In this document: piece by piece, positions 1 to 61,372 of the stretch | Layout: every line of letters starts with the position of its first letter | Position numbering within the stretch: the first letter of the stretch is position 1 | From: an uncultured Verrucomicrobiae bacterium | Lineage (GTDB): Bacteria > Verrucomicrobiota > Verrucomicrobiia > Chthoniobacterales > UBA10450 | Direction: 5' to 3' | DNA length: 64,000 nucleotides | Assembly: GCA_963726745.1 (NCBI GenBank) | Contig: CAVSDR010000003.1 | Location: forward strand, 896,001-960,000 | Translations under genes and position numbers: made by a program | The notes under the pieces: generated by a model | Told to the model about the DNA's origin: nothing | The model's input: the letters and a program-made list of their open reading frames with translations, nothing else | Database searches by the model: none

Positions 1-270
1 AGCGAAGAAACGTGGCCGCTGCAGGTGGACCTGGAGCGCCACGGGGTGCGCTTTCGCCTGGTCCACATCCCGCCGGCAAAACCACCGGCAGCGGTGGACG
101 TCCTCCTGCATGGGCACACGCATGTGCCCCGCGACGAGCGCGTGGGCTCGGTGCGTTTCCTGAATCCTGGCTGCGTCACCCGGCCGAACCGGGGCGCGCC
201 CGCCAGCGTGGCGCATCTCGAAGTTTCGGCAGACGGCCACGTCCGCTGGAACTTGGAGACGACTCGTTAG
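1..270 (+). CDS. Metallophosphoesterase, YfcE/MJ0936 family (5'-partial)
   Basis: Frame is open from base 1; LHGHTHVP and FLNPG motifs typical of the family; TAG stop lies inside the ACTCGTTAGGC motif. Confidence 0.8.
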   Translation, partial: SEETWPLQVDLERHGVRFRLVHIPPAKPPAAVDVLLHGHTHVPRDERVGSVRFLNPGCVTRPNRGAPASVAHLEVSADGHVRWNLETTR

Positions 271-294
271 GCCACGCGGCGTGCGAGCCTCGGC

Positions 295-543
295 TTAACC
301 GCGATCGGCCACCGCGGGATTCCGCGGAGCAGTCTTCGCGACCATGGGGGCCGGCGTGCTCTCGAGGTTGGCGGGCGCCGACGCTTTCGCGGTCATGCCC
401 GGGGTCACCACGGAACTGGAGACGAATTGCCAACCGGAGAAGGCGGTGCAGAGGACCACGAGCGCATAGATGCTGTGCTCGAAGATCGCCCGGCCCTTTT
501 CTTCGGCTTGAAGGAGGATGGAGTAGGTGTTTTTGCTTTTCAT
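295..543 (-). CDS. Small hypothetical single-TM protein
   Basis: ATG at 543 gives MKSKNTYSILLQAEEKGRAIFEHSIYALVVLCTAFSGWQF..., one hydrophobic helix followed by an Ala/Pro tail. Confidence 0.6.
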   Translation of the reverse strand: MKSKNTYSILLQAEEKGRAIFEHSIYALVVLCTAFSGWQFVSSSVVTPGMTAKASAPANLESTPAPMVAKTAPRNPAVADRG

Positions 544-715
544 TTTGTGTGGGTATTGAGCCCACCCATATCGCAGGGTCCGTGCCAGCCGACGTTTTAA
601 GCCGTAAAGCGTGCAAGTCCCGTAACTTACACGCGAGAATGATCTTACGTGCCCAACGGAAGCGTGGCAGCGCTGGGACGCGGCCGTTTCGTTTCCGGGA
701 CGCCCGCATTCGGGC

Positions 716-749
716 AAAAAAATAGCGGCAACCTTTCGGCCGCCGCTAT
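716..749 (-). terminator. Rho-independent terminator downstream of rplQ
   Basis: ATAGCGGC/GCCGCTAT stem followed by a T7 run on the minus strand. Confidence 0.8.
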
Positions 750-774
750 CTTATTTGAACGCTGAAAGCGCTGC

Positions 775-1290
775 CTATTCTTCCGACTTCTCGGCTTTCG
801 GCTCCTTCTTCTTGCGAGCAGGTTTCGCTTCGGTCTCCTTCGAGGCCTTTTCTGGCTTGGAAGGCGACTTGGCGGCTTTGGTTTTTTTCGCCGCGGTGGT
901 CTTCTCGTCGGTCTCCGCTTCGTCCGTGATCAGGGGCGCATCGACCCACTCGATCAAGGCCACGGGCGCGGAGTCGCTTTTGCGCTGGCCGAGCTTGATG
1001 ATGCGGGTGTAACCGCCGTTGCGCTCCGCCGCGCGGGGCGCGATGTCGCTGAATAATTTCTTAACCGCATCGGCCTGGCGCAGGGTCGCCAGCGCGGTGC
1101 GCCGCGCGTGCAGCGAACCTTTTTTGCCGAGCGTGACCATTTTCTCGGCCAACGGACGGACCGCCTTGGCCTTGGCCAGGGTGGTTTTGATCCGCTGGTG
1201 CTCGATCAAGCTGCAAACCTGATTGGCCAGCAGCGCTTTCCGATGCTCTGCCGTGCGGCCGAGCTTGACCGTTTTTTTCTGGTGTCTCAT
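775..1290 (-). CDS. rplQ: 50S ribosomal protein L17 with Lys/Glu/Ala-rich C-terminal extension
   Basis: [23 protein letters not shown]...IKTTLAKAK...[12 protein letters not shown]. Confidence 0.98.
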
Positions 1291-1320
1291 GAGATGATTC
1301 TTTTTCTTCCCTAACGAGTG

Positions 1321-2358
1321 CTATTCCCCGAGGTCGGCGCCATTGGCGCCATCGAGCGGGATGCCCATGGGCGTGTCGACCAAACCTGGATCGAATTTCA
1401 TCCCCAGGCCGAGGCCGAGCTGAAGCAGCTTGTCCTTGATTTCGTTGAGCGATTTCTTGCCGAAGTTGCGATACTTGAGCATCTCCGCTTCCGACTTCTG
1501 GGCCAGCTGGCCCACGGTCGTGATGTTGGCGTTGTTCAAGCAATTCGCCGCGCGGACGCTCAGCTCGATCTCGTTCACGCTCATGTTGAGCAGCTTCTTC
1601 AGCTTCATGTTCTCCTCGGAAACACCGGCCGGCGTTTCGTCGAATTCGATCACGTCTTCGTTGAAGTTCACGAAGACATCGAGGTGATGGCGCAGAATCG
1701 CGGAAGCCTGCAGGAGCGCGTCGTCGGGGGTGAGGCGGCCGTCCGTCCAGACTTCGAGGATGAGCTTGTCGTAATCGGTCCGCTGCCCGACACGGGTGTT
1801 CTCGACCGCGTATTTCACGCGCGTGACCGGCGAGAAAATGCTGTCAATCGGGATCAGGCCAATCGGCTGATCAGCGCGCTTGTTCTCATCGCCGGTGGCG
1901 AAACCGCGGCCGACGCGCACTTCGAGCTCGGCGTCGAACTTGTGCTTCTTGTCGATCGTGCAGATGAGTTGATCGGGGTTCAGGACCTCGAAGCCCTGCG
2001 CCAGCGTGATGTCGCCGGCAGTGACTTCGCCTTCCTTGTTCACCGTGAGGGCGAGCTTGCGGGGTTCGTGCTCGGCGGCTTTGAATTTCACGCGCTTCAG
2101 GTTGAGCACGATGTCGGTCACGTCCTCAACCACGCCCGGGAGGGTGGCAAATTCGTGCTCCGCACCGGTGATCTTGACCGCGGTAATGGCGGCGCCTTCG
2201 AGCGACGAAAGCAGGACGCGGCGCAGGCTGTTTCCGACCGTGTGGCCATAGCCGGCCTCGAAAGGTTCGGCGACAAACTTGGCGTAGGTTTCTGTGGCGC
2301 TGCTCTCCTCTTTGGTGAGCGTTTTCGGCATTTCAAACCGACCGTAACGTACTGGCAT
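1321..2358 (-). CDS. rpoA: DNA-directed RNA polymerase subunit alpha
   Basis: EPFEAGYGHTVGNSLRRVLLSS, DSIFSPV, RVGQRTDYDKL, alpha-CTD ELSVRAANCL/NFGKKSLNEI; GGAGG SD upstream of ATG at 2358. Confidence 0.98.
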   Translation of the reverse strand: MPVRYGRFEMPKTLTKEESSATETYAKFVAEPFEAGYGHTVGNSLRRVLLSSLEGAAITAVKITGAEHEFATLPGVVEDVTDIVLNLKRVKFKAAEHEPRKLALTVNKEGEVTAGDITLAQGFEVLNPDQLICTIDKKHKFDAELEVRVGRGFATGDENKRADQPIGLIPIDSIFSPVTRVKYAVENTRVGQRTDYDKLILEVWTDGRLTPDDALLQASAILRHHLDVFVNFNEDVIEFDETPAGVSEENMKLKKLLNMSVNEIELSVRAANCLNNANITTVGQLAQKSEAEMLKYRNFGKKSLNEIKDKLLQLGLGLGMKFDPGLVDTPMGIPLDGANGADLGE

Positions 2359-2369
2359 AACTGATGGTT

Positions 2370-2456
2370 CCTCCGCGCCGGGTTCCCCCTGGCGAGTGCG
2401 GTTTCCGTCTAGCAACGGAGCCCCAGGGACCTACGGCGCAACGTGTGACGACTCGC
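2370..2456 (-). promoter_or_regulatory. Putative structured 5' leader of rpoA
   Basis: Nested complementary segments 2375-80/2434-39, 2387-92/2423-28 and 2404-08/2415-19, abutting the SD at 2370-74. Confidence 0.45.
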
Positions 2457-2505
2457 TGCGGACGGGCAATGAACACGCTTTGGCCGGAATCGCAAGCGCC
2501 GCGCG

Positions 2506-2943
2506 CTAGCCTTCGACGACCGTGTTCGGAAGCTCGCCACGGAGCTCGTCCTTTGGCGGAAAATGCTGCGCGAGCAATTGCCCCACGCTCCCGATGCCCT
2601 CGATCAAGGCGTCGGTAAACGCTTCGCGTTGGAAATGCCCGCGCATCGTGGCCACAAGTTGCTGCCAAAATTCCTCGCCGCACTTCCGGTGAATCCCCTC
2701 GTCGCCGACCACGGCGAACTTCTGCGCGCGCGGCGCGACCAGGATGAGGACTGCGTTGCGCTCCCGGGTCGCGGTCATGCCGAGCTCGTGGAATTTCGCG
2801 GTCGCGAACTTCAGCGGATCGTCGGCTACTTTGCCGCGCTGCACGTAGACGCGGATCTCGCCGGAAGTGTTCGCCTCCGCTGCGGCGATCGCCGCCTCGA
2901 TCCGCCGGTGGTCCAGCCGAGCCATGAAATCATCGGTCTTCAT
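2506..2943 (-). CDS. TPM domain protein (short type)
   Basis: IEAAIAAAEANTSGEIRV...T.ERNAVLI...GDEGIH...ELPN. Confidence 0.88.
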   Translation of the reverse strand: MKTDDFMARLDHRRIEAAIAAAEANTSGEIRVYVQRGKVADDPLKFATAKFHELGMTATRERNAVLILVAPRAQKFAVVGDEGIHRKCGEEFWQQLVATMRGHFQREAFTDALIEGIGSVGQLLAQHFPPKDELRGELPNTVVEG

Positions 2944-2947
2944 TACC

Positions 2948-3727
2948 TTACCAGCTCGACCCTCCACCGCCGCCGCCGAATCCGCCACCGCCGCCGCTGA
3001 AGCCGCTAAACCCTCCGCCACCTCCGCCGCCGCTGGACCAGCCGCCGCCGCCGCCCCCGCCGCCAAGGAAAAACCCACCGGGAGCTCCCAGTAATCCGCC
3101 CCGACGCCGTCCGCGCGAGAGCTTGCCCATGATCACGAGGAAAATCATGAAGCCGATGAAGAGCACCAGGCACGACACGCCGCTCGAGGTGGTCCCGCCT
3201 TTTTCCCGCGACTCCGCCACGGTTTTGCCGCTGCCTTTGTATTCACCCTTCGCGGCCTTCATCATCAGCTCGATCCCAGTCGCGAGGCCGGCCTCGTAAT
3301 TCCCCTGCCGGAACTGCGGCTTGATGTGGCGCTCGGTAATGTCGAAGGCGGTCACGTCCGGGATCGCGCCCTCCAGCCCGTAGCCGACTTGGATGAACAT
3401 CTTCCGGTCGTCGATGAAGACGAAGAGGACCGCGCCGTTGCGCTTGTCTGCCTGCCCCACGCCCCAGGCTTGCGCGATTCGCTGGGTGTAGTCGGCGATG
3501 TCGGAAGCGCTCTGCATCTTCCGATAGACTGCGACCACGAGCTGGTTCGAGGTCTCGCGCTCGAATTGCGCGAGCTGCTCGTTAAAACGCAGCGCCGTGG
3601 CCGGGGAAACCACGCCGGCCAGATCGTTGAAGTAGCCAGCCGGCTTGGGCGGGATCGCCTCCTGCGCGCGCACCCCGCTTCCCGCGACGAGAAGGAGCGC
3701 GAAAATTAGCCGACGAATTGTCGCCAC
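2948..3727 (-). CDS. TPM domain protein, YgcG-like, Gly-rich C-terminus
   Basis: Signal peptide, WGVGQADKRNGAVL, IQVGYGLEGAIPD, TM helix, GGGGGFGGGGGGSSW end. Confidence 0.9.
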   Translation of the reverse strand: MATIRRLIFALLLVAGSGVRAQEAIPPKPAGYFNDLAGVVSPATALRFNEQLAQFERETSNQLVVAVYRKMQSASDIADYTQRIAQAWGVGQADKRNGAVLFVFIDDRKMFIQVGYGLEGAIPDVTAFDITERHIKPQFRQGNYEAGLATGIELMMKAAKGEYKGSGKTVAESREKGGTTSSGVSCLVLFIGFMIFLVIMGKLSRGRRRGGLLGAPGGFFLGGGGGGGGWSSGGGGGGGFSGFSGGGGGFGGGGGGSSW

Positions 3728-3730
3728 GGT

Positions 3731-4405
3731 CTACGGCGTGGCCGCGGGCGTGGCCACCGGGGCGACCGCGGGTGCAGCGGCCGGCGCGGGCGTATTCCCG
3801 AAGCTCCCGAAGTTCACCTTCGGCGCGGTCTCGGCCCCGGCCTGCGCGGCGAAGAACGGCCGCGGCTGGAAGCCAAACATCTTGTTCAAGAGGTTCGTGG
3901 GGAAGGTTCCCAGCGCAGTGTTGTACTGCTGGACCGCGCCGTTGAAATTATTTCGCTCGACCGAGATCCGGTTCTCCGTCCCCTCGAGCTGCGCCTGCAG
4001 ATTCTGGAAGGCTTCGGTCGCACGAAGCTGCGGATAGTTCTCGCTCACCACCAAAAGGCGCGAGAGCGCGTTGCTCAATTGCCCCTGCGCTTGCTGGAAC
4101 TCCGCCAGCTTGGCCGCGTCCTTCGGCGCATTGTTCGGGTCGAGATTCACCCGGCCGACGCTGGCACGCGCATCGGTCACTTCCGTCAGGGTCGACTTCT
4201 CGAAGTTGGCCGCGCCCTGCACCGTGCTCACGAGATTCGGGATCAAATCCGCGCGCCGCTGGTAGACCGACTGCACGTCGGCCCACTTCTTGTTCACGTT
4301 CTGCTCCAGGCTAACGAGTCGATTGTAGCTCCCGCAGCCAGTCAGGGAAAAAATGAGCGTGAGCGCAAAGAGCGCGCTCGCGAGTTTGGAAGCAGTGGTC
4401 TTCAT
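3731..4405 (-). CDS. lemA: LemA family protein
   Basis: YQRRADLIPNLV, ENYPQLRA, LEGTENRISVER; canonical LemA-TPM-TPM cluster. Confidence 0.93.
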   Translation of the reverse strand: MKTTASKLASALFALTLIFSLTGCGSYNRLVSLEQNVNKKWADVQSVYQRRADLIPNLVSTVQGAANFEKSTLTEVTDARASVGRVNLDPNNAPKDAAKLAEFQQAQGQLSNALSRLLVVSENYPQLRATEAFQNLQAQLEGTENRISVERNNFNGAVQQYNTALGTFPTNLLNKMFGFQPRPFFAAQAGAETAPKVNFGSFGNTPAPAAAPAVAPVATPAATP

Positions 4406-4437
4406 CGTCCGAGAGTCTCCGCTCCGGACCCGGCAAG

Positions 4438-5510
4438 TCAATCCGCGCGCGGACGAACCTCCACCCGCATCGGCAGCCAATGATTCACCATGTAGGTGCC
4501 GTATTCGGCCACGCGTCCCGGCGGCTGGGTGCGCCCGGCCGCGTCAGTCGCGCGCGCCATCAGGACCACGTTCCCGTGCTCCGCCGGCACCTGCCATGGG
4601 CACTCCCAAAAACGCCAGCCAAACGGCGCCGTCTCGCCGGTTAATTCCGCCAGCGGTCCAGCTTTGCCCGCCATCGCTGCTGAACTCCACCTTGCGTCAC
4701 CGGACTCTCGCCGCTCCAGGCCGCGCCGCGCACGGTGTAGCTGCTGCCGGCGTCCACCACCTCGCCAAACTTCGGCTGCGCGATCTGCGCTTTGACCGCG
4801 ATCTCGCTCAGAGGCGTGAGGTCCGGATGATCGCCGCGACGTTCCCAGTAGGCGTAATCAAAGGTCTGGAAGTAGCCGTGGAAGGGCCGCGCCGTGACCA
4901 CGAGGCGCCGAAGCCATTTCACCGAGGCCATGCCGAACCATCCCGGCACGACCGCGCGCAGCGGAAACCCATGCGGCGGCGTCAGCGGTTCGCCATTCAT
5001 CTCCAACGCCAGGAGCGTGTCGCCCATTGCTTTCGCCAGCGGCAGGCTGCGCGTGTAGTGGAAATCGGTCGGCGGCCTTGGCGGTTCGGCGACATTCCCG
5101 CGATCGGCACCCTCCAGGATCACCTCGACCGCGCCCGGCTTGACGCCCGCTTTCTCAAGCACGTCGCGCAGGAGCACGCCGGTCCAGCGCGCGTTCCCGA
5201 CCGCGCCGATGTCCCATTGCACGCCCTTCACCTTCGGCTCGAGATGCGAGCGGCCGTTGCCGGCACATTCCATCGTCGCGATCACCGTGTGCTGCGGCAA
5301 CGCGCGCAATTCCTCGAGGGAAAACGCGAGCTCGCGCTCGACCTCGCCCGCGATCTGGAGGCGGAAGCTTGCCGCCTCCACCTCCGGCACCGGGAAGTGG
5401 CAGCGGATGTAAAAGCGGTCGTTCGGCGTGATCCAATCCTCCAGGGTGGAGAACGGCATCTCGAGGTTCAGCGGCTCCTTGCTGCGGGTGATCAATTCCG
5501 GTTTCGTCAT
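4438..5510 (-). CDS. Sulfite oxidase family molybdopterin oxidoreductase (frameshift near 4690)
   Basis: FYIRCH, ECAGNGR, HGFPLRAVVPGWFGMASVKWL; the dimerisation domain continues in ORF 4438..4674. Confidence 0.85.
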
Positions 5511-5524
5511 AGTTGTCGCGCGCT

Positions 5525-6046
5525 TCAATGCGCCGGCAGTTCCGCGCGGCGTTTCTGGTCGAGCAAAAGGCCCCAGAGCCCATTGTAAGGATGCACCTGT
5601 GCGACCTCGTGGCCCTCGCGAAAAACCGGTCGCCCTTCATTGGCCCACTGGAAGATCGAGCCTTCGAGATTGCGCACCTTCGTGAAGCCGGCCGCGCGCA
5701 GGCGCTGCGCCAGCGCCGCGGAACGATAGCCGACCGAACAGTAGGTCACGATCGCGCGCTCCTTCGGCGCGGTGACCGCCGAAGCTGGAGCTGCGGGATC
5801 GATCCGCTCCGCGCCGCGCAGATGGCTCACGGCAAATTCCTCCGGCGTGCGCACGTCGAGTAGCAAGGGACGGCGCGCTTCCGTTGCCGTCATCTCGCCG
5901 GCTAATTCCGCAGTCGTGATCCGAGGAACTTCGGGAAACTCGCGGCGAATCTTCCCGTTCACCAGTTTCCAGCCGAGGCCCGCTTGGGAATGGGCGCAGG
6001 CCGGCAGCAAACTCATGCAGAGAAGAATCGCGAAGCTCCGTTTCAT
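5525..6046 (-). CDS. Rhodanese-like domain protein, exported
   Basis: LLDVRTPEEFAVSHL, YCSVGYRS, NLEGSIFQW; N-terminal signal. Confidence 0.88.
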   Translation of the reverse strand: MKRSFAILLCMSLLPACAHSQAGLGWKLVNGKIRREFPEVPRITTAELAGEMTATEARRPLLLDVRTPEEFAVSHLRGAERIDPAAPASAVTAPKERAIVTYCSVGYRSAALAQRLRAAGFTKVRNLEGSIFQWANEGRPVFREGHEVAQVHPYNGLWGLLLDQKRRAELPAH

Positions 6047-6137
6047 CGGCCGTGAGAGTCTAACGATCGCGGCGCCGCTGTCACCCGGCGATCAACTTGC
6101 CAAGTCCGCGGGGGCAACGCATAGTCCCGATCGTTTC

Positions 6138-6212
6138 GCGCGGTTAGCTCAGTGGTAGAGCACCTCCCTGACACGGAGGGGGTCACAGGTTCGAAACCTG
6201 TATCGCGCACCA
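6138..6212 (+). tRNA. tRNA-Val(GAC)
   Basis: GCGCGGT/ATCGCGC acceptor stem, TAGCTCAGTGGTAGAGC D arm, CCTCC-CTGACAC-GGAGG anticodon arm, GGTTCGAA T loop, encoded CCA. Confidence 0.97.
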
Positions 6213-6229
6213 TCTCTTTCCCCTCCTGC

Positions 6230-6811
6230 ATGGCTGAACACTCGAGCATTCTGCAGGCAGCGATCGACTCCGCCCGGGAAACGCTCGAGACCCTCGCGGT
6301 CTTGGCGGAGCCGATGGACCGCGCAGCCGCCGCAGTCGAGCGTTGCCTCACCTCGGGGCACAAAATTCTCCTCTGCGGCAATGGCGGAAGCGCGGCTGAT
6401 GCGGCCCATTTTGCGACCGAGTTCGTCATCCGTTTCGTCAATGACCGGCCGGCTTACCCGGCCCTCTGCCTAACGAGCGATGGCGGCACGCTCACGGCCG
6501 GCGGGAACGATTACGGCTTCGACGAAATCTTCGCGCGCCAGGTCGCGGCTTTTGGGCAAACCGGCGACGTCCTCATCGCCCTCAGCACCAGCGGGAATTC
6601 GCGCAACATCGTGCGTGCGCTCGAGGAAGCGAAAGCGCGCGGAGTGCAGACGATCGCGCTTCTCGGCCGTGATGGCGGGAAGACGCGCGGCTTGGCCGAG
6701 ATCGAGTTCCTGGTCGCGGGCCAGGCGACCGCGCGCATCCAGGAAGCGCACATGTTTCTCCTCCACGTCCTTTGCGAGGAGATGGAAGTGCGGCTGGCGG
6801 CCGCTCGTTAG
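6230..6811 (+). CDS. gmhA: Phosphoheptose (D-sedoheptulose-7-P) isomerase
   Basis: CGNGGSAADAAH, GNDYGFDEIFARQV, STSGNS, TARIQEAH. Confidence 0.93.
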   Translation: MAEHSSILQAAIDSARETLETLAVLAEPMDRAAAAVERCLTSGHKILLCGNGGSAADAAHFATEFVIRFVNDRPAYPALCLTSDGGTLTAGGNDYGFDEIFARQVAAFGQTGDVLIALSTSGNSRNIVRALEEAKARGVQTIALLGRDGGKTRGLAEIEFLVAGQATARIQEAHMFLLHVLCEEMEVRLAAAR

Positions 6812-7734
6812 GCGAGCGGCGGCAGGTGGATGGTCGCGAGCATGCAGCGCGCGCTCCCGCCGGCGAGTTCAATCGTCGGCAGATCCAATGGCACCGGCCG
6901 CGCGAAACGCTCGATCGTTTTCCGCTGCTCCGGCGCGAGCGCGGCGAGTGCGCGCGCTGAAAGCACGCAGAGCTTTTCGCCCGCGGCGTTCTCCAGCTCG
7001 AGCGCGTTGCCGGCAAATTCACCGATCTGGGCCGCGCTCAGCGCGAGCACTTCCTTGCCGGTCGACTCGAGTAAATTCTGCACGCCGATGCGCTCCGCTT
7101 CATCGGCGATGAGCGCCGTGCCCAAGAGCGCGAACTCCGTCCCGACACACATCACCACGTTGGTGTGATAAACCGCGCGGCCATCCGGGCTCGCGCTGTG
7201 AAATTTCACCGCCTCGTAGCCGAAGTCGGCGCAAAAACGCTCCAGCACGTCGGGATGCGTCCGCTGCGAAAGCGAGGCGTAAGCCAGCTTATTTTCGTGG
7301 TCGAGCACCAGGCTGCCGGTGCCTTCGAGGCATTGGCCCTGCGCCTCGCACGCGGAATAGTCGACCACTTCCGCAACGCGATAATGCTTTCGCAATTCGT
7401 CGATCACCTCGGTCCGCCGCTCCCGCCGGCGCGCCGGCGAAGCCATCGGATAAAGCGCGACTCGCCCGTCGTGATGTGTCGAGAACCAGTTGTTCGGGAA
7501 AACCGCGTCCGGCTTCTCCGGCGCCGCCGAATCTTCGACCACGTGCACGGTCACGCCAGCGGCGCGCAATGTCTCCACCGCGGCATCGAACTCGCGCTGC
7601 GCCGCAAGAGAAAGAGCCGGCAACTCGCCCGCGGCGACCGCGCGCTGGAAGGCATTGTCGGCCGCTGTTTCGGGGTTCGGATAAAATCGGTGCGGCCGGA
7701 TCATCAGGACTGCGCGGGCGCTTTGTTCGCTCAT
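6808..7734 (-). CDS. Amidinotransferase / CtlX-like citrulline utilization hydrolase
   Basis: MIRP, NPETAADNAFQ, PDAVFPNNWFS, LEGTGS, YHTNV, GGSARCM. Confidence 0.88.
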   Translation of the reverse strand: MSEQSARAVLMIRPHRFYPNPETAADNAFQRAVAAGELPALSLAAQREFDAAVETLRAAGVTVHVVEDSAAPEKPDAVFPNNWFSTHHDGRVALYPMASPARRRERRTEVIDELRKHYRVAEVVDYSACEAQGQCLEGTGSLVLDHENKLAYASLSQRTHPDVLERFCADFGYEAVKFHSASPDGRAVYHTNVVMCVGTEFALLGTALIADEAERIGVQNLLESTGKEVLALSAAQIGEFAGNALELENAAGEKLCVLSARALAALAPEQRKTIERFARPVPLDLPTIELAGGSARCMLATIHLPPLA

Positions 7735-7746
7735 AAGGGAAAGAAT

Positions 7747-9450
7747 TTAGACAGCAACTTGTTCTGGCCGGCTGGCACCATGCCGCCAAATCGCGAGCGC
7801 GACAAAGAGCAGATCGAGCACGACAAAGCCAGCGACGTAAGCCTCGCCGCCCGCGCCGAAGCCGTAACTGTGCAGCCCTTTGCCCAGGAGAAAATTCACT
7901 CCATACCAAGCCATCAACACCGCGAGAAAACAGATCACGCTCGCGACCACCAGGCCGAAGTCCGCCCACCAACCCGCCAGCCGTCCATGCAGCGCGACGA
8001 GATAAGAAAGGAGCGCCAGCAGCGCCCACGTCTCCTTCGGATCCCAACCCCAAAACCGCCCCCAGGAATAGTTCGCCCAAACGCCGCCGAGGATCGTCCC
8101 CGCAGCCAGCAGAAGCACGCCGAGCTGGAGCACGCGACGAAGCCGCAGAGCCAACGCTGGGTCCACCGGCGCCCGCAGCGCGCGCCAGAGCAGGATGTGC
8201 CCGAGACCCAGCGCAAGCGCGAAGGCCGCGTAGCTCAGCGTGATCGTGAGCACATGGATCGTGAGCCAGAAATTATCGCGCAAGACCGGCACCAGCGGAT
8301 CGATGCTCGCCGATAGCGCGACCGGCATTTGGTGCACCAAAAGCAGCGCCACCAGTGCGATCGGCAAGGCCGCGAAGAGGTAGACGAGCGCGCGCGTGCG
8401 CAGGAAAAAAATCATCCCAAAAAGGGCGACCGCGAACGAAACCCAAATGATCGACTCATACATATTCGTCACCGGCGGCCGCCCCGCGACCAGGCAGCGG
8501 AGGACGATCGCGGTGCCGTGAAAGAGCAGCCCGCCGAGCGCGAAACCGACGGCTAAATTTCGCAGGACGCTGCTCCCGCGCATGAAGGCCGCGAAGGCAA
8601 AGAGCAAGAGCGCGAGCCCATACGCCCAAGCCGCGCGGTAAAACCCATCGAAGTCGTGATACCGCACCTCGAGCTTGAGCTGGCGCTCCGTCGGGTAAAT
8701 CGCCGGGCTGAGCGCGCGCAAAGCGCTACGCAATTCCGCCGCGCTGCGTGCAAACTGCGACCGGTCGCCCTGGAGATAACCGAAGGCGAGCGCCTGTAGC
8801 GCGGTCTCCGCGCCGGCGAATTGCTCCGCGGAATAATATTCGCCAAAGGCCGGCGGCACGACCCACGGATCGGTCACGTTCTGCGCCGCGGGCACGATCA
8901 AGAGCGCGCTTCCGTCGAGGATGCGGTTGAGCAGGGTCAGCCGCGCGCTCACCAGGCTCACCTCGGTCTGCAAGCGGTTCAGCGGCTGCTCGGCGCGCTG
9001 GAGCGCGTGCACTTCCGCCGCCAGCTTCTGCAATTCCGCGGAGCCGCTCAGTTCGGTGAAGGAGAAGCGGCGCTGCGACTTCGGCAGCCCCAGCCGCTCG
9101 ACCAACTCGCCTAACGAAACCAAAACCAGCGGTTCGTTTTTCCAATTCCGCGTTTCCAGCAGCGCCGAAAGGAGAAAATCGTTCGCGCTCCAGCGCCTCC
9201 CGCCGGTCAGGCGATAGGTCGAGCGGCCGCTAATTTTAGTCAGCGCCTCGCGCGCGAAAGTGTCGACTGGTTTCCGCCGGCCGCCCTCCTGGATCGCCAG
9301 CATGCGCCACTGCGAAAAATCGAGTCCGCCCGTCTCGGGCACGGGTCGCGGCGCCGTTTGGCCGAAGGCCGGGAGCGCGAGCGCCACCAGGAGCGCGAGG
9401 AAAAGCGGATGCAAAGTCCGGGAATCTAGCGCCCGGCGCCGCGTCGCCAA
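7747..9450 (-). CDS. ccsA: Cytochrome c biogenesis protein CcsA (system II) with N-terminal periplasmic domain; start uncertain
   Basis: GRPPVTNMYES, LVPVLRDNFWLTIHV, WWD domain GGVWANYSWGRFWGWDPKETW, GLHSYG. Confidence 0.9.
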   Translation of the reverse strand: MATRRRALDSRTLHPLFLALLVALALPAFGQTAPRPVPETGGLDFSQWRMLAIQEGGRRKPVDTFAREALTKISGRSTYRLTGGRRWSANDFLLSALLETRNWKNEPLVLVSLGELVERLGLPKSQRRFSFTELSGSAELQKLAAEVHALQRAEQPLNRLQTEVSLVSARLTLLNRILDGSALLIVPAAQNVTDPWVVPPAFGEYYSAEQFAGAETALQALAFGYLQGDRSQFARSAAELRSALRALSPAIYPTERQLKLEVRYHDFDGFYRAAWAYGLALLLFAFAAFMRGSSVLRNLAVGFALGGLLFHGTAIVLRCLVAGRPPVTNMYESIIWVSFAVALFGMIFFLRTRALVYLFAALPIALVALLLVHQMPVALSASIDPLVPVLRDNFWLTIHVLTITLSYAAFALALGLGHILLWRALRAPVDPALALRLRRVLQLGVLLLAAGTILGGVWANYSWGRFWGWDPKETWALLALLSYLVALHGRLAGWWADFGLVVASVICFLAVLMAWYGVNFLLGKGLHSYGFGAGGEAYVAGFVVLDLLFVALAIWRHGASRPEQVAV

Positions 9451-9638
9451 ATCGCATCAGCGCGCGTATTTTTGCTGGTTCACTTCCTGTCCCGGCGCGG
9501 GCCGTGGCCGAATCGCTTTCACGTGAGAGTCAACCAGAACGCCTCGCTCGTGGTCGTGAGCTTTCGCGATCAGCAGCAGCGCCGGATAGAAGCATGGCGC
9601 ACGCTGGAGGCAGCGGCGGATCGCCTCAACTGCGCGGC

Positions 9639-40810: not shown

Positions 40811-40811
40811 A

Positions 40812-50815: not shown

Positions 50816-50860
50816 CCGCGGCTTGCACCGCGCGCTTTCCTGCCAGAGACTCGTCGCCTT

Positions 50861-51160: not shown

Positions 51161-51288
51161 CTTGCCGGGAGCCTCCAGGGCAAAAGCGCGCGCGTTTCGC
51201 GCCGTTGCCGCTCCCTCCGCAAGCGCCAGACGCACGGTGGATTGATGATTCGTTAGGCGCGAAAGCGTCGGCAGTTTTCGGGGGAGAA

Positions 51289-52869: not shown

Positions 52870-52874
52870 ACCAT

Positions 52875-53773
52875 ATGAAGAAACTACTCGTTAGCCTGTC
52901 GGCTATTTTCTGCTGCGCCTGGGCGCGCAGGCCAAGCTCAACGTCGTCACCACCCTGCCGGACCTGGGCGCGCTCGCGCGGGAAATCGGCGGCGACAAAG
53001 TCGACGTCACCACCATGGCCAAGCCGACGGAGGATCCGCACTTCGTCGATGCGCGCCCAAGCTTTGTCGTGCAGTTGCGCAATGCCGACGCCTTGATCGA
53101 AGGCGGAGCGGAGCTCGAGCTCGGCTGGCTCCCGCCGCTCCTGCAAAACGCGCGCAACCCCAAGATCGAAGTCGGCAAGCCCGGGCGCATCCAGGCTTCC
53201 GCCGGAGTCCGCCTGATGAATGTGCCGGCTAATGTCACCCGTGCGGCGGGCGACGTGCACGCGCTCGGCAATCCGCACTTCGCGATCGATCCGATCATTG
53301 CCAAGACGATCGCCGCGCACATCGCGCAATCCTTCGGCGAAATCGATCCGCCAACGCCGCTTCCTACACCGCGAACGCAAAAGAGATTCGAGGAAACGAT
53401 CAACGCCAAGCTGCAGGAGTGGGGCGCGGCCATGCTTCCGTTCAAAGGCCAGCATGTCGTCGCCTATCACGATTCCTGGCCCTACTTCGCGCACCGTTTT
53501 GGCGTCGAGATCGATACCTTCCTGGAGCCGAAGCCTGGCATCCCGCCTTCGCCCTCCCACCTTGCGGAAGTGATCGGGCAGATCAAAGCGCAGAAGATCA
53601 AGGCGATCATCGTGGAGCCTTTCCACGATCGGAAAATTGCCGAGAAAGTCGCGAGCGCGACCGGCGCCAAGGTGGTCGACTTCGCGCAATATCCCGGCGC
53701 GCTCCCGGACACGGAGACCTATGTGAAACTGATCGATGCGCTCGTTAGCCGGCTCTCGTCGGCGATGAAATAG
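52875..53773 (+). CDS. Metal ABC transporter substrate-binding protein, ZnuA/TroA-like (frameshift near 52915)
   Basis: EDPHFV, G.ELE.GWL, GDVHALGNPH, YHDSWPYF, EPKPGIPPS..HL. Confidence 0.88.
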
Positions 53774-53777
53774 CCTT

Positions 53778-54593
53778 ATGTGGGACGTCATGTTCTGGCC
53801 CATCGTGGCCTGCGTTCTTCTCCCCTGGCTCCTGGTCTATCTCGGACTGCACGTGGTCCAGCGGGGAATTATTTTTATCGATATCGCGATGGCGCAGATG
53901 GCCTCGTTAGGCATTTGCGTGGCGCTGCTTTTCCGGATCGATCTCCATAGCCCAATCACCTTCGCGATTGCGCTCGGCTTTACCTTGCTCGCGGCGGCGC
54001 TGTTTTCCTTTACCGGAAAACGCGCCAGCGAAGTGCCGCAGGAAGCGATCATCGGCATCGCTTACGTGGTCGCGGCCGCGGCTGCCGTGCTCATGCTCAG
54101 CCGCGCGGCCGAGGGGGACGAGGAGATCAAGCAGATGCTTGTGGGCAACATCCTGCTGGTCTCACCGAGCGATGTCTGGATTTGCTTTGGGCTCTTCGTG
54201 GCCGTGGGGGTGTTCCACTTTCTCCTGCGGAAGAATTTCCTCCTGGTTTCCTTCGATCGCGATGCCGCCTATCACCGCGGGCTCATCGTGCGCTGGTGGG
54301 ATTTTCTCTTCTACGCCGCCTTCGGCCTGGTCGTGACCAGCTTCGTCCGCATCGCCGGGGTGCTCCTGGTTTTCAGTTATCTGATCGTGCCGGCGGTCTG
54401 CGGGATTACCCTCGCGCGCCGGACCGGGGCGCGCTTGCTCATCGGTTGGCTGGTCGCGCTGATCGGCGGAGTGGCCGGGTTGTTTTTCTCCTTTTACGGC
54501 GACCTGCCCTCGGGCGCCGCGATCGTCTGCACCTTCGGCGCGTTGCTCGTGCTCGTGACCCTGCTCTCGCTCTTCCGGCGAGCGGCGGCCTAG
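53778..54593 (+). CDS. Metal ABC transporter permease, ZnuB-like
   Basis: YLGLHVVQRGIIFIDIA, QEAIIG, GVLLVFSYLIVPA, DLPSGAAIV. Confidence 0.88.
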   Translation: MWDVMFWPIVACVLLPWLLVYLGLHVVQRGIIFIDIAMAQMASLGICVALLFRIDLHSPITFAIALGFTLLAAALFSFTGKRASEVPQEAIIGIAYVVAAAAAVLMLSRAAEGDEEIKQMLVGNILLVSPSDVWICFGLFVAVGVFHFLLRKNFLLVSFDRDAAYHRGLIVRWWDFLFYAAFGLVVTSFVRIAGVLLVFSYLIVPAVCGITLARRTGARLLIGWLVALIGGVAGLFFSFYGDLPSGAAIVCTFGALLVLVTLLSLFRRAAA

Positions 54594-57112
54594 CGCCACT
54601 CGTGCTTCGGGTATTTGCGCTGCAGCTCTTTTTTGAGCTTCGGGTATTGCTCCGCCCAGAAGCCGGCGAGATCGCTTGTGACCTGGATCGGGCGATGATT
54701 CGGCGCCAGCACTTGCATGACTAACGAGACTCGGCCGCGGGCGATCGTGAGGTTGCGCTCGACGCCGTAAAGATCCTGGATGCGCGCAGCCACCACCGGC
54801 GCGCTTGTGAGGTGGTAGGTTATTTTCGCCTTCCGGCCTTTCGGCAACTCCAGCCGCTCAGGCGCGAGTTGATCGACCTGCTGCTGCTGCTCCCAGGTGA
54901 GCCACGATTTCACCGCAGGCCAGACCGGGCGTTCCTTGATTTCCTTGTAACCCAAGGCGCCGCGGCAGACTTCCTCGATCATCAAGCGCTTCTCCGCCTC
55001 GCCCACGGTCGGGAATTGCAACTCCGGAAACCACTGCGCGACGCAGTTCACGCGCACGAGCCATTGCTCGACTGCGTTGTCCCAATTCTTCAGCGGACAA
55101 GCGCCCGCGAGCACCTGCTCCGCGAGCAAGGCCGCCGCCTGCTCCTCGCTGGGATTAGCCGGCGCGCTCCGCAAGACGAGGTCATGAAACGCGGTCAACT
55201 TTTTGCCGACGACGCGCCGCATCGTCGGATCGAACGCGACCTCGATCTCCTCGCGAAACGCCTCGGGGAAAAGCTCGCGCAGCCATTCCTCCTCGATCTT
55301 CGTCCCAAGGGTGAGCAGCGTCTGCAACTCGCCGCCGGTCTCGATCTCGCGGATCTCGGAAGCAACCAGGAGCGGCGCGCGATGGACCACGCTTTCGCGC
55401 GCGAGCACCCCGCGCCGGCCATGCACCAGCGCACAGCGAAGCGTTCCCTGGTCCAGCCGGAGCGCCACTTGATCGGGAAACCCGGCGAGGACGCAGCGCT
55501 GGATCGCGCCCGGCAGCAGGCTCGTTCGGCGAGACGTCGAGGCCTTCCTTGCGCGCGATCTCGAGGAACTGCTCCGCCAGTTGAGCGGCCTCGCGCGCCG
55601 CCGGCGCGTTCACTGAGAGCCGGGCGCAACGCCGCGGATCGAAGTCGTTCTTTTCCGCGAAGCGAAAGGCGCGCGTGAGGATGAAAAGATCCGAATCGTC
55701 GTCGTCGCCTAACAAGTCGTTGCGGTCGTCGCGCGCCTGTTTGCCCTCGGCCCGGCGCAGGAGATTGCGCCCCTGCGTAACCGCGGCGATGAGCGCAATC
55801 GCGCGCACGCAGCGTATTCCTGCGCCGCCAGGAGCATGCGCGCGTAGCGCGGGTGCAGCGGGAAGGCGAGCATCCGCTGGCCGAGCGGGGTGATCTCGCC
55901 GGCTAAAATCGCGCCGAGGTCGCCTAACAAACGCTCGGCGCCCTCGAGCGCGCGCGGGTCGGGCGGCTCGAGCCAGCGGAACTTGCCGACATCTTCCACC
56001 CCGCTGGCCTTGAGCGTGAGCACGACCTCCGCGAGGTCGAGCCGCTTCACTTCCGGCAATTCCTGCGCGGCGCGCTCGAGATGCTCGCGCTCGGTCCAAA
56101 GCCGGAGGCAATGCCCGGGCGCGGTCCGGCCGGCGCGGCCGGCGCGTTGATCGGCCGCGGCGCGGCTGATCTTTTCCACGAGCAAAGTGTTGATCCCACG
56201 CCGCGGATCAAAGCGCGCGATCCGCGCCAGCCCGGCATCGATGACCACGCGCACGCCCTCGATCGTGAGCGAAGTTTCGGCGACGTTGGTCGCGATGATG
56301 ACCTTGCGTTTTTCGTAACGGGCGAGCGCGGCGTCCTGCTCCGCGGGCTGTAACTCGCCATGCAACGGCACGACGACAAAGTGCTGGCTAATCCTGGAAG
56401 CGCGGACGGCGTTGAGGGTGCGGCCGATCTCGTATTTCCCCGGCATGAAGATGAGCACGTCGCCTTCGGTCGAGCGCGCCAGCCTAACGAGTTCTTCCAC
56501 GGCCAGGTCCCAGACCGGGAAGTCGCCGGCTGATTTCGGCAGATACTCGACCGTGACCGGATGCTGCCGCCCGCCAGAGGTAAGGGTGGAGCAGGGCTGG
56601 AGGAATTTCTCGAGCGCGCCGGTATCGAGCGTGGCGGACATGACCACGACCTGGAGATCGGGGCGCGCGGTTTCCTGCAGGTGCAAGGCGCGCGCGAGGG
56701 TGATGTCGCCGTAGAGATGGCGCTCGTGAAATTCGTCGAAGAGGATTGCGGAAACGCCGCGGAGTTGCGGATCCTTGATCAGTTGCCGCAGGAGAATGCC
56801 CTCGGTGACGAAGCGGATGCGCGTGCGCCGGGAGACGACATTCTCGAAGCGAATCTGGTAGCCGACTTCGTCGCCTAATTTGCCAGCACGCTCATGGGCC
56901 ACGCGGGCCGCCAGCATGCGCGCGGCAATGCGGCGCGGCTGCAGAATGACCACCTCGCCTTCGCCGAGCAAATCGTGCTCGAGCAGCATCTGCGGCACCT
57001 GGGTGGATTTCCCGGAGCCAGTCGGGGCCTGCAGGATCAGGCGCGGGCGTTCGCGCAACGCGCTGACGATTTCCGCCTCGAGCTCGTAGATCGGAAGGTC
57101 GCGCGGCGCCAT
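54590..57112 (-). CDS. hrpB: ATP-dependent helicase HrpB (frameshifts near 55810 and 55510)
   Basis: APTGSGKST, DEFHER, MSAT, ATNVAETSLTI, QRAGRAGR; C-terminal LAPNHRPIQVT.DL..FW...YPKHEW. Confidence 0.9.
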
Positions 57113-57115
57113 CGC

Positions 57116-58744
57116 TTAAGGCTGCTCTTTCCGCCGCCGCAGCAAATCGCCCACGGCGTCGACCAGCAAAACCAGTCCGGCGCAGGTGGCGAGCAGGGTG
57201 AAGGAATATTGGAGCATGGTGTAGCGATGGATGTGCAGCGAATGCACGATCGCGGTGCCGAGGCTGTTCCCGAACGGGTAGGCAAAAAGGAAAAGCGTGA
57301 GCAGCGTCAAGGGTCCATAACGTGCCCGCCACCCGGGCCAAAACAGGAGCGCAACAGCCAGGGCGAGCGTGCCCAGGAAGACGACCAGAAAGGCGTGCGC
57401 GAGGAGATTATTTGCCCGGCGCACGCTCCAGGATTGCACGACATCCGCCGGCGTCTGCTGGAGCTCGCGGGAATGCGCGAGGTATTCCTGCAAGGGCGGG
57501 AACGGAGCATTATCCCGCGCGCGGCCATCGAGGACGCGATTGCTTTTCTGGTAGTAGCCGTCAAAGCGCGCGTGCTTTTGCCCGATGAAGGCGGGGTTGT
57601 TCCAGCGATAAAAAATCGCCATCTGGCTGGTTATTTTCCGGAGCATCGCGCCCGGGCGATGGCGCATCGTGCGCCAGAAGTAGTCGCGGAAGAATTGCAT
57701 CTGCAGGTGGTAATCGGGGAAGAAACGCGGCGTCCAACGATGCAAGCCATCGACGTGGAAGAGGAGATAATCCGGGTCGAACCCGAAGGAGCTGTAGTGG
57801 TGGCTGTGGGCCCACGAGCGCGCCATCGCGTCGTGTAAACTCGCGACCACTTCGCCAAACCAGGCGCAGCCTTGGGGCGGGCAAAGCCCGCGCGCGAGGT
57901 CCTCGTCCATCTGCTGCACGATCAGGTTCGCGTGAATCGTGAAGAGGCTTTCGGCCATGATGTTGTGGGCGTCGTCGTCCGGCTCGGCCATTTTGCGCTC
58001 GAAGAGAACGACCGTGAGCGCAGCGGCGAGGCCGAGCGCGAGCACCGCCAAGCGCCGCCGCCAGGTGGCGCGACGATCGAAGAGCGCGACCACGACGAGC
58101 CCCGCGCTGAAGAGCACGCTGATCCCAAAGCTGGTCTTGATCGTGACCAGGAGGACGGAGTTTACGAGCACGCCGCAGGCAAGCGCCGCGGTTCCACGGT
58201 TGAAACCCTGCGCGCGCCAGCGCGCGAAAAAGAGGAGCGAGAGGTAGATGTTCAGAAGCGCGAAAAAAGGCGCGATGCCCTCCGGGCGAATCTGGTGCTC
58301 GAAGACGATCGGCCGATTCGCCAGGAGATAGACCGCGACCATGCCCAGCCCGAGAAAACGATGCCACCAGCGCGGCACGAAACGCAGGAGCGGTGCGAGT
58401 TGATTCCACGAAAGCAGGAGGAGCACGCCGGTCCCGAGCCCGAGAAGATGCTGCACCACACTGAGCGCGCGAAAATCACGCACCGCGCTGAGCACCAGCC
58501 AAACGAAGCCGGGATAGAGGAAGTTTCGCCCGTCGGTGTGTTGAAAGCCGGTGCCGGAAAGCTTCGAGATTGCTGGGTAGAGGTAGCCCCAGGTATCGGG
58601 ATCGGCCAGGGGCCATTGCGGCAGGCGAAAACGCAGAGCCGCGCCGCCCGCGAAGATGAGCGCCAGCAGCAGGCCGTAAAGAACGGCGCGTCCAAGGGCG
58701 AAGCTGCGCGCGTTTGAGTTCACAAGGTGAGCACTGGCTTTCAA
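57116..58744 (-). CDS. Polytopic membrane protein, possibly GT-C-like; start uncertain
   Basis: Many TM segments, DPDTWGYL loop, R..LYP. Confidence 0.6.
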   Translation of the reverse strand: MKASAHLVNSNARSFALGRAVLYGLLLALIFAGGAALRFRLPQWPLADPDTWGYLYPAISKLSGTGFQHTDGRNFLYPGFVWLVLSAVRDFRALSVVQHLLGLGTGVLLLLSWNQLAPLLRFVPRWWHRFLGLGMVAVYLLANRPIVFEHQIRPEGIAPFFALLNIYLSLLFFARWRAQGFNRGTAALACGVLVNSVLLVTIKTSFGISVLFSAGLVVVALFDRRATWRRRLAVLALGLAAALTVVLFERKMAEPDDDAHNIMAESLFTIHANLIVQQMDEDLARGLCPPQGCAWFGEVVASLHDAMARSWAHSHHYSSFGFDPDYLLFHVDGLHRWTPRFFPDYHLQMQFFRDYFWRTMRHRPGAMLRKITSQMAIFYRWNNPAFIGQKHARFDGYYQKSNRVLDGRARDNAPFPPLQEYLAHSRELQQTPADVVQSWSVRRANNLLAHAFLVVFLGTLALAVALLFWPGWRARYGPLTLLTLFLFAYPFGNSLGTAIVHSLHIHRYTMLQYSFTLLATCAGLVLLVDAVGDLLRRRKEQP

Positions 58745-58839
58745 CGGAACGGGAACATTGCAGGGAAACGCCTTTTTGCACTTTCCGCGGAACCGGCGAA
58801 GCTCCCCGCACGCGATGACTCCGAGGGGCTGGCCGCACG

Positions 58840-59976
58840 ATGATTAACGCGCATACACGGCTGCTTTTTTTCGCCCCGCATCCCGACGACGAGAGTCTCG
58901 CCGGCGGCGGCTTGCTGCAACGCGCGGTCGCCGCGGGCGCGGAAGTGCGGGTGGTCTTCGCGACCAACGGCGACAACAATCCCTGGCCGCATCGCCTGGT
59001 GCAGCGGCAATGGAAAATCGAAGTGGGCGACCAGATGCTCTGGGGCATGCGCCGCGCGCAGGAAGCGCTGGATGCGCTCGACATTCTCGGCCTGCCCGCG
59101 AGCGCAGCGGAGTTTCTCCATTTGCCTGACCAGCGCGTGACCGAGCTTTTCCTGCGGAACGATCCGGAGACCGTCCGGCGAATCACGCGGATCGTAGAAC
59201 AGTTTCGGCCGACATTATTGGTCGCGCCGGCGCCGTTCGACATTCATCCCGATCACAGCGCGCTCTGGCTGCTGATTCAGCAAGCCTGCCTGCGCGCGGC
59301 CTGCGCGCCGCCGGAGCAACTGGCCTTCGCGGTGCATGGCCGCGGTTATCATTCGGACTGGCACGCGGAGGAGTTGAACCTCTCAATGCGGGAGCAAATC
59401 GTGAAACGCGCCGCCGTGCTCAGCCATGATTCGCAAATGATCCTGAGCCGCCGCCGTTTCCTCGCGCACGTGACCCCGCGGGAACGTTTTTGGCGTGCGA
59501 CCGCGCCGCGCGAAAACGATCCCGGGCATCCGGTGCGAAGCGCGCGCGTCGAGGCGAATACCCTCGTCCTGCAGCTGCGCCGGCGTCAGCGCGCCGGCAG
59601 TTTTGCGCGCTGCCGCTTGATGCTCGCGCTCGAGCACGGGCTCGCCGGCCGGGCGCAGCGCTGGGTGGTGAGCTTGCCGGCTAATTCCCGCCGCGCCTCC
59701 GTGTGCGAGGCGAGCAGCGGCGCGGAACTGGCCCTGGCCCAGGTGCGCACGCAGGGCGTGCATGCGGAAGTGCGCGTGCCGCTTCCAGCGCCGGAAACGC
59801 TCACCCACGTCTTCGCCAAGCTGCTCGAGCCGGCGCTCTTTTTCGATGTCGCCGGCTGGCGGGAAATCCCCACCGCGCCCACCCTCGCGCCGGCGTCGCT
59901 CAACGGTCACAGCATGTCGCTGGCGCCGCAGCGCCGTCGCCGGTTGCTCCCGCTCAGGGCGAAAGCCGCTCGATAA
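58840..59976 (+). CDS. PIG-L family deacetylase
   Basis: APHPDDESL, ATNGD, DIHPDH, HDSQ. Confidence 0.88.
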   Translation: MINAHTRLLFFAPHPDDESLAGGGLLQRAVAAGAEVRVVFATNGDNNPWPHRLVQRQWKIEVGDQMLWGMRRAQEALDALDILGLPASAAEFLHLPDQRVTELFLRNDPETVRRITRIVEQFRPTLLVAPAPFDIHPDHSALWLLIQQACLRAACAPPEQLAFAVHGRGYHSDWHAEELNLSMREQIVKRAAVLSHDSQMILSRRRFLAHVTPRERFWRATAPRENDPGHPVRSARVEANTLVLQLRRRQRAGSFARCRLMLALEHGLAGRAQRWVVSLPANSRRASVCEASSGAELALAQVRTQGVHAEVRVPLPAPETLTHVFAKLLEPALFFDVAGWREIPTAPTLAPASLNGHSMSLAPQRRRRLLPLRAKAAR

Positions 59977-60610
59977 ACCAGGCAGCGCCGGCTGCTTCGC
60001 GGCGGTAGCGGAAGCGATCGTGCAAGCGGTTCGTGCGGCCCTGCCAAAACTCAATCGTGTGCGGGACCACGCGGTAGCCGCCCCAATGCTCCGGCAGCGG
60101 CACCTCGCTCCCGGCAAAACGCTCCCCGGCCGCGGCCAGCTGCTCTTCGAGCGCTTCCCGGCTCGCGACCACCTCGCTTTGCGCCGAGGCCCAGGCTCCG
60201 AGCTGACTGCCTTTCGGCCGCGAATGAAAATAAGCTTCGGCCTCTGCCACCGAGGTCTTCTCGACCGTGCCTTCGATGCGCACCTGGCGCTCAAGTTGCA
60301 CCCAAAAAAGGATAAGCGCGGCGCGCGGGTTCGCGGCCAGCTGGCGGCCTTTGTCGCTCGCGTAGTTGGTGAAGAAAACGAAGCCGCGCTCGCTGACGCC
60401 CTTGAGCAAAACGATGCGCGCAAAAGGCGCGCCGTCTGGAGAAGCGGTCGCCAGGGTCATCGCATTCACGTCGCGGATCTGCGAAAGGGCGGCGGCTTCG
60501 CCAAACCAAATCTCGAATTGCTTGATCGGGTCCGGATCGAGGTCCGACCGGTGCAGTCCGCGGGCGGTGTAATCTTCGCGCAGCGCCGCCAGGTCGATCG
60601 AGTTGCTCAC
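59954..60610 (-). CDS. pdxH: Pyridoxamine 5'-phosphate oxidase
   Basis: LREDY, NAMTLAT, RIVLLK, FFTNY.S.K, SRP..SQ, EFWQGR.NRLHDR, RLSP. Confidence 0.95.
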   Translation of the reverse strand: MSNSIDLAALREDYTARGLHRSDLDPDPIKQFEIWFGEAAALSQIRDVNAMTLATASPDGAPFARIVLLKGVSERGFVFFTNYASDKGRQLAANPRAALILFWVQLERQVRIEGTVEKTSVAEAEAYFHSRPKGSQLGAWASAQSEVVASREALEEQLAAAGERFAGSEVPLPEHWGGYRVVPHTIEFWQGRTNRLHDRFRYRREAAGAAWFIERLSP

Positions 60611-60685
60611 GGCAGCTAACACGCAGCCAAGGCACGGAGGTGTCAAGCGTGGCCCTCCTCTTGCTTTGAGTCGTTATACCCTCTG

Positions 60686-61372
60686 ATGAAAACGACTCGT
60701 GTCCTTGCTTTCTGCCTTGGGCTGCTGCTGCTCCCGCACACCAGCCGCAGCGCCGTTCTCTATACCTACGATTTCCCAGGCAGCCCGGGGTCGGGGCTGG
60801 CCTCCGCGCAAACCAATCCCCAACCGCCGAAGGCAACTTTTAGCGACTTCACCCGGGCCGCCAGCCTCGCGGCGACGACCAGCGCCAGCGGCAACAACGT
60901 TTTTTCCAGCAATGGCTGGGGCACCGGCGCAGCCTTCGACCCGGCCCAATATGTCGGCTATTCCATCGCCGCGGCGACCGGCTTTGTGCTCAATCTCACC
61001 AGCATTGACTTCCTCGCAGGCCGCTCCGCCACAGGCCCGACAAGCGCCCGCGCGAGCCTTTTCCTGAACGGCGTCGCCACCCCGTACGCCTCGCTGGACT
61101 TTACCCCCGCGACGAGCCTTGGCGCCTTTACGCTCAACTTCCCCGCACTCACCAGCGCCAGCAATGTCAGCTCCGCCGAGATTCGCTTCTACGGGTGGAG
61201 CGGCGGCGGCGGTCGATTGGACTTCGATGATGTCGCGACCAACGGCGCCACCGCCGTGGCGACCGTGCCGGAAGCCTCCGCCATTGTCCCAGTCCTTCTG
61301 CTGCTCGCGGCGATCACGGGCGCCGAGGTCCGCCGGCACCGGCGGGGCGCGTTGCGCCTAACGAGCGGTTAA
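60686..61372 (+). CDS. PEP-CTERM-type sorted surface protein
   Basis: Signal peptide; C-terminal VPEASA + hydrophobic helix + RRHRR. Confidence 0.75.
   Translation: MKTTRVLAFCLGLLLLPHTSRSAVLYTYDFPGSPGSGLASAQTNPQPPKATFSDFTRAASLAATTSASGNNVFSSNGWGTGAAFDPAQYVGYSIAAATGFVLNLTSIDFLAGRSATGPTSARASLFLNGVATPYASLDFTPATSLGAFTLNFPALTSASNVSSAEIRFYGWSGGGGRLDFDDVATNGATAVATVPEASAIVPVLLLLAAITGAEVRRHRRGALRLTSG

Follow-up and report, generated by a model that had tools for sequence, protein, structure and literature searches.

A word maintained in the genomes of the Candidatus Udaeobacter family resembles a DNA uptake tag

What keeps the seven-base word CTAACGA so abundant in a 64,000-nucleotide stretch of a Verrucomicrobia genome? 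The stretch (hereafter the window) is C3:896001-960000 of genome G000 (3.41 Mb on 7 contigs), which we place in the family of Candidatus Udaeobacter, order Chthoniobacterales; its closest named relatives by RpoA are Chthoniobacterales and Ca. Udaeobacter metagenome-assembled genomes (MAGs; 85-94%). Ca. Udaeobacter is among the most abundant soil bacteria. A sequence-only reading of the window had counted 43 copies of the word, 20 forward and 23 reverse, where about four were expected by chance, and had proposed that a sequence-specific system maintains it. We obtained the same counts, and an order-3 Markov model of the window predicts 3.9 copies. The results presented here show that this word, which we call word A, is a real, family-wide and actively maintained DNA-level signal. 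It would most likely be an uptake tag enriched by molecular drive through sequence-specific DNA uptake, a reading to which we assign a probability of roughly 0.55.

Word A has the core CTAACGA and the consensus GCCTAACGAG. Its 20 plus-strand copies span 1311..61364, with starts at 1311, 4311, 6060, 6470, 9111, 16895, 22150, 26727, 27444, 38742, 39153, 42379, 43689, 44783, 47498, 51030, 52273, 54721, 56484 and 61358; the 23 minus-strand copies span 264..53910, with leftmost bases at 264, 6805, 10832, 13922, 15837, 16254, 20927, 22639, 28166, 28344, 29546, 30515, 31020, 35203, 37349, 38390, 40996, 43438, 44519, 51250, 52888, 53742 and 53904. A tolerated variant, CCTAACAA, adds five copies on both strands (span 11170..55930; 11170+, 23648-, 34427+, 55708+ and 55923+), all of which had been placed correctly to within a base or a word's length. 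The copies at 35203 and 37349 share about 25 identical bases and lie at the ends of open reading frames (ORFs) of similar length, probably duplicated genes. According to self-trained gene calls, 25 of the 43 copies lie within genes, nine overlap a stop codon and nine fall outside called genes. 

In the whole of G000, CTAACGA occurs 2,025 times, on all 7 contigs, at about 0.6 per kb and with an even distribution that shows no regional clustering. The genome logo reads G(0.87) C(0.75) CTAACGA G(0.64), followed by a preference for A/T at the adjacent position and again three positions later, giving the consensus GCCTAACGAG(W..W) and agreeing with the extended word described from the window. Beyond this A/T tail, neither the logo nor a flank check showed any signal; with no extended flank and no distal partner, word A does not look like part of a longer mobile repeat. 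For a codon-preserving null, we shuffled synonymous codons five times in the 2,657 confident genes returned by the self-trained gene caller, which missed some genes. Coding DNA holds 1,422 copies of CTAACGA, compared with 83-110 (about 98) across the shuffles, an approximately 14-fold excess, and 628 copies of GCCTAACGAG compared with 3-7. The variant CCTAACAA is likewise in excess in coding DNA (109 copies vs 10.8 expected under a motif-masked null).

Within genes, word A is found in every open frame on both strands (662, 298, 283 and 173 copies; 375 are intergenic), and it reshapes codon usage as had been anticipated: 662 of 2,737 TTA codons and 301 of 1,224 CTA codons in G000 lie within the word, as do 167 of 786 TAA stops, a feature that the sequence-only reading had missed. 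The tripeptides named from the window are indeed written largely with the word (485/749 SLG and 179/238 PNE), while TTA is used in just 4 of 940 ALG tripeptides. Ranked against dipeptide expectation, PNE is third and SLG fourth among all tripeptides, and each is about 1.8 times as frequent as its reversal (SLG 749 vs GLS 404; PNE 238 vs ENP 133). A doubling of tripeptides has been reported for the uptake signal sequence (USS) and the DNA uptake sequence (DUS) (PMC2817400), and DUS have been described as occupying permissive sites, yet being conserved, and as missing from recently acquired genes (PMC2397512). We compared orthologs in 11 family genomes, using 20-100 kb of each. Word-A sites fall in variable protein segments, the tripeptide being identical at 61 of 199 sites compared with a baseline of 46%. 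Where the peptide is conserved, however, word-rich relatives keep word A at 16 of 20 sites that carry the word in G000, as against 15 of 100 sites that do not.

How far the word extends was determined in a panel of 36 family genomes, including four unpublished ones (G001, G008, G030 and G035), and 24 outgroup genomes from the same order. The density of SCTAACGAG is 26-559 per Mb in 36/36 family genomes vs 0.4-12.7 per Mb in 24/24 other genomes of the order; without the unpublished genomes the family tally is 32/32, at 26-545 per Mb. Density thus varies about 20-fold within the family, and in three members (G002, G003 and G005) the word does not rise above the reversed-word control, itself an intrinsically more frequent sequence. 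A further genome, G309, carries 5,526 copies of CCTAACGA in 4.3 Mb. Among 250 sampled genomes of the phylum, none had YCTAACRA above control, including family member G107, which has another word. Word A is also present in fragmented assemblies of relatives.

Word A also avoids itself. Counting pairs against the expectation from local density, and using 25 control words, we found 196 A-A pairs at 15-300 bp in G000 where 390 were expected; the deficit is equally strong for opposite and same orientations, and in each of the first five bins word A falls below every one of the 25 control words. Even spacing has been reported for DUS and USS (PMC1939737). This orientation-independent redundancy argues against polar signals as well as against independent site-by-site mutation, both of which fit poorly. 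Three options had been raised from the window: self-DNA uptake, a nucleoid-protein site, and methylation- or repair-driven accumulation. Chi and KOPS are short, non-palindromic, over-represented words that are strand-polar. A polar signal for a helicase-nuclease or a translocase would account for a word that is short, non-palindromic, dispersed and lineage-specific, and a related word in Haloferula (below) is skewed 47 to 29 over 200 kb in which GC skew is strong; word A, however, shows neither polarity nor any preference in its neighbours, with strand counts of 358/320, 316/305, 117/130, 133/129 and 69/57 on the five largest contigs (47-55% on the plus strand, judged by contig as GC skew is weak), as the window had already indicated. 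We consider a Chi- or KOPS-like role very improbable.

The same self-avoidance would suit any protein with a large footprint, including one that organises or maintains the chromosome (nucleoid bridging, control of SMC, or an XerD-like tyrosine recombinase) and whose sites are selected for even spacing. The box recognised by tyrosine recombinases has the consensus GTTRRRY, which the reverse complement of word A fits, and G000 encodes just two tyrosine recombinases, both XerC/D-like. A search with dif patterns nevertheless gave no dif-like site holding the word, and we rejected this arm of the explanation; in addition, copies are spread evenly over the contigs rather than regionally. Among 5-kb windows, the fifth with the highest GC content holds 0.78 copies per kb and the 5% with the lowest GC content 0.21; the widest gap between copies (25 kb) corresponds to a sugar-biosynthesis-like island of low GC; the word is depleted in low-GC DNA, GC content being only a proxy for recent gain. 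The range of density within the family, whole islands devoid of the word and the swapping of words by sister lineages (below) make an essential structural spacing hard to square with the data, and we regard this explanation as unlikely. Taken together, the orientations, frames, ortholog retention and self-avoidance support the proposal that a sequence-specific system maintains word A.

The genome carries a second word, of equal abundance in the window, that had gone unnoticed. Word B (YGYYGNCTAW, often with an A five bases upstream) has 43 window copies on both strands between 760 and 60961, 27 of them in the form YGYYGGCTAW (e.g. 3715-, 5896+, 23752+, 41981+, 43134+ and 60952+) and 16 in which N is a base other than G (e.g. 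769+, 7756-, 42373+ and 56869+). Genome-wide, it reaches 2,354 copies, 8-13 times the synonymous null. Word B avoids itself (381 B-B pairs vs 471 expected) and not word A (862 A-B pairs vs 822 expected), which points to separate, independent readers for the two words. Its distribution is patchy within the genus: among the 36 relatives, clear enrichment is seen in G011, G015, G017, G009 and G029, and weak enrichment in G018 and G002. A tree of 20 genomes built on one gene (10 of the initial 30 loci lacked it and were dropped) does not place G000 with the other word-B genomes, although its support is weak.

Yet another word, word C (AAGATCGACAW), is used at up to 2 per kb by sister lineages whose GC content is about 55% (L316, L322, L332, L344, L349, L368, L372 and L376; L190-L192 in G107). 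In 15 loci that encode the family's orphan methyltransferase (below) and were picked as poor in word A, AGATCGAC occurs 153 times in 182 kb (84 per 100 kb), compared with 10 per 100 kb in G000, while locus L344 holds words A and C together, with 41 and 13 copies in 20.7 kb. A relative of word A is found in the cultured Haloferula chungangensis, with 1,781 copies of YCTAACAR in 5.2 Mb, whereas a Luteolibacter MAG has 79 in its 3.2 Mb (Haloferula loci L070, L073 and L253-L262). In 200 kb of Haloferula, TCTAACA occurs 60 times vs 3.2 expected, with 0 pairs closer than 200 bp vs 5.3 expected. By our count, 27 of 121 genomes in Haloferula's family, about a fifth, exceed twice their own control for YCTAACAR.

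Of the options raised from the window, self-DNA uptake fits these observations best. Word A would be a DNA-level tag bound by a double-stranded-DNA-binding protein indifferent to orientation and satisfied by a single copy every 300-500 bp or so. This reader would act at DNA uptake in competent cells and would most likely be a pilin, a receptor on a type IV competence pilus that favours tagged fragments; tagged alleles would then displace untagged ones by homologous recombination, and the word would spread wherever protein constraint permits, by molecular drive as proposed for DUS and USS. Word B would be served by a second, independent reader. In the known systems, DUS belong to Neisseriaceae, with ComP as receptor, and USS to Pasteurellaceae, with ComN/PpdA as predicted receptor (PMC12616744). 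Word A resembles them in its 9-10 bp non-palindromic core with a weak AT-rich tail, its density, its thousands of copies on both strands and in all open frames beyond codon and peptide expectation, its near-doubled tripeptides, its permissive coding sites kept in orthologs, its depletion in atypical, low-GC DNA and its lineage-specific variants. It differs in its unrelated sequence and phylum, and in that G000 has two independent words, with a third in sister lineages, where DUS and USS show dialects of one core. Word A would thus work like an uptake tag, and its membership of the DUS/USS class is not established.

Part of the machinery for such uptake is encoded in G000, which has a type IV pilus, ComEC, DprA, ComM, PilM, three secretin matches, six PilT-family matches over the cut-off and 19 N-methyl matches. 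One PilQ-like secretin (C6:319701-322374) is broken into two frames, suggesting an assembly indel. A PilA-like type IV pilin gene lies in the window itself (22199..22645, plus strand), with its TAG stop within a word-A copy; it is one of four similar pilins in G000, has no close match in G305, G425 or G362, and is given here as context only. The family's matches to HhH are nuclease-HhH fusions with a ComEA-type HhH (family-wide, L213-L221), and the nuclease-like copy in G000 (C4:17230-17874) ends before the HhH part. A search of five genomes for TIGR02596 gave no match over the cut-off. Two paralogous three-gene minor-pilin cassettes each end with a DUF7305 protein (L134:6578-9133 and L133:7383-9936), and one of them is flanked by a prs-like gene on one side and the rplY/pth/ssb/dprA region on the other. 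Cassettes of this type are found in 24/36 family genomes and 2/24 outgroups.

Several results weigh against an uptake tag. The uptake genes do not discriminate because they are as common in outgroups (ComEC in 22/24, PilM in 16/24); PilM was not found in 7/36 family genomes, including the word-rich G001, G010, G013 and G030 (73-94% complete), and G000 has no clear ComEA, the best match having an E value of 3e-6. No receptor was identified for word A or B among the three pilin candidates profiled across the family, none of which follows either word; PilX-like, PilW-like and GspG-like pilins are among those that do not follow the words, and a pilin that scores weakly against ComP_DUS (E 0.0011) occurs throughout the order. 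The minor-pilin cassette that we tested was not found in the word-rich G013, G024, G031 and G033, and the second cassette does not match the distribution of word B. Self-avoidance is not clear in a 60-kb sample of G309, the densest genome (29 vs 31 pairs closer than 200 bp), and is modest in 120 kb of G312. Inverted pairs acting as terminators show no excess (17 head-to-head and 20 tail-to-tail within 150 bp, with no short-distance peak), and only 33 of the 199 word-A sites are common to relatives overall, most being unshared outside word-rich relatives. Finally, mismatched DUES are reported to be enriched (PMC1939737), whereas among one-base variants at the seven core positions, with words masked, only CCTAACAA is in excess and the others are at or below background. 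An apparent depletion of one-mismatch variants was partly an artefact of the null, most being at background after masking; the low count of CCTAGCGA can reflect CTAG avoidance, and the null for CCTAACGC may remain inflated by unmasked word-B forms.

A different link to transformation is offered by HIP1 of cyanobacteria (GCGATCGC), which like word A is hyper-abundant, lies in genes and is spaced more evenly than random. HIP1 has been described as quasi-periodic and as giving a methylation-dependent boost to transformation (10.1101/2024.09.10.611283, PMC13756078). By analogy, an orphan methyltransferase could methylate the word, which would then act after uptake or in repair by furthering the processing or recombination of self DNA. 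The family does conserve an orphan N6/N4 methyltransferase, of the SPPY type (G000 C3:981293-982042; L138:6293-7042), 64-80% identical across the family and 50% like cyanophage methylases; orthologs of 69-76% were present in 3/3 word-rich genomes tested, and none similarly strong in two outgroups. This enzyme, however, tracks the family and not the word. At 64-78% identity it is found in many word-C metagenomic contigs, and of the 31 enzyme-bearing loci that measure 7.5 kb or more, 12 lack CTAACGA altogether, contrary to the idea of a methyltransferase co-distributed with word A. Moreover, a single enzyme does not account for two independent words, both non-palindromic; word A has no internal palindrome, and its logo shows no HIP1-type octamer with an internal GATC or CGATCG. 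Two further methylase-like genes came up in a motif search, both of them fragments of type I HsdM, and deeper searches gave no cognate site for the orphan enzyme. GTAC, at 0.16 of Markov expectation in G000 (CTAG is at 0.28), was rejected as its site, being depleted also in outgroups without the enzyme; it is low in outgroups G039 and G043. We therefore view a HIP1-like origin as unlikely, if a little less so than chromosome organisation.

Word A also coincides with part of an integron. The R'' box of an attC site has the consensus RYYYAAC / GTTRRRY, which the Haloferula word fits as well. In outgroups G040 and G054, from a sister family, cassette arrays (L183-L188) carry attC sites of about 105 bp that start with word A: they begin with GCCTAACGA(G/C) and end with GGTTAGGC about 100 bp on, their first 9-10 bases equal word A, and one array lies beside intI. 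The word might accordingly derive from attC sites or be kept by an integron integrase. In G000, though, copies are single half-sites in housekeeping genes, codon-compatible and without hairpin, L boxes or an R' partner within 200 bp beyond chance; no R''-L''...L'-R' hairpin cassette array with intI was found in this genome, and an attC array in the window was dismissed for want of a distal partner and hairpin pairing. IntI was not found in G000 or in the word-rich G024, and its presence (17/36 family genomes, 12/24 outgroups without the word) shows no correlation with the word. An integron integrase as the driver is largely refuted, and an integron-linked origin very improbable.

If word A is indeed an uptake tag, sequence-specific uptake may have evolved in Verrucomicrobia independently of Proteobacteria, with modular, exchangeable readers each driving its own word. 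Genomes could then carry two tags (A and B in G000, A and C in L344), sister lineages would swap them, and as the commonest tag equals the integron R'' end, cassette DNA would be taken up preferentially; we put this wider scheme forward tentatively, at somewhat less than even odds. According to a 2025 article, no families other than Neisseriaceae and Pasteurellaceae are known to select DNA by motif at uptake (PMC12616744). In agreement with the sequence-only reading, our literature search found no description of these words, nor anything on the Haloferula word or on independent double words; it did not cover subscription journals and supplements, where tables of over-represented words could hold them. 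A third such family would show that short tags act as a filter on gene flow in soil, and would provide a replicate test of molecular drive and a handle for transforming poorly cultivated cells; the question is testable now, with the cultured Haloferula chungangensis as test organism. Should the reader not be a pilin, the words would reveal a new genome-wide DNA-binding system able to rewrite codons and residues. The words are also lineage markers for binning and phage-host prediction.

Contigs from two soil sequencing runs came mostly from other organisms. Within the window, ARAGORN calls a tRNA-Ser at 28750-28837, inside a molybdopterin oxidoreductase ORF, which is probably false, and HrpB (55709-57112) matches just the first half of its model, suggesting an assembly indel.

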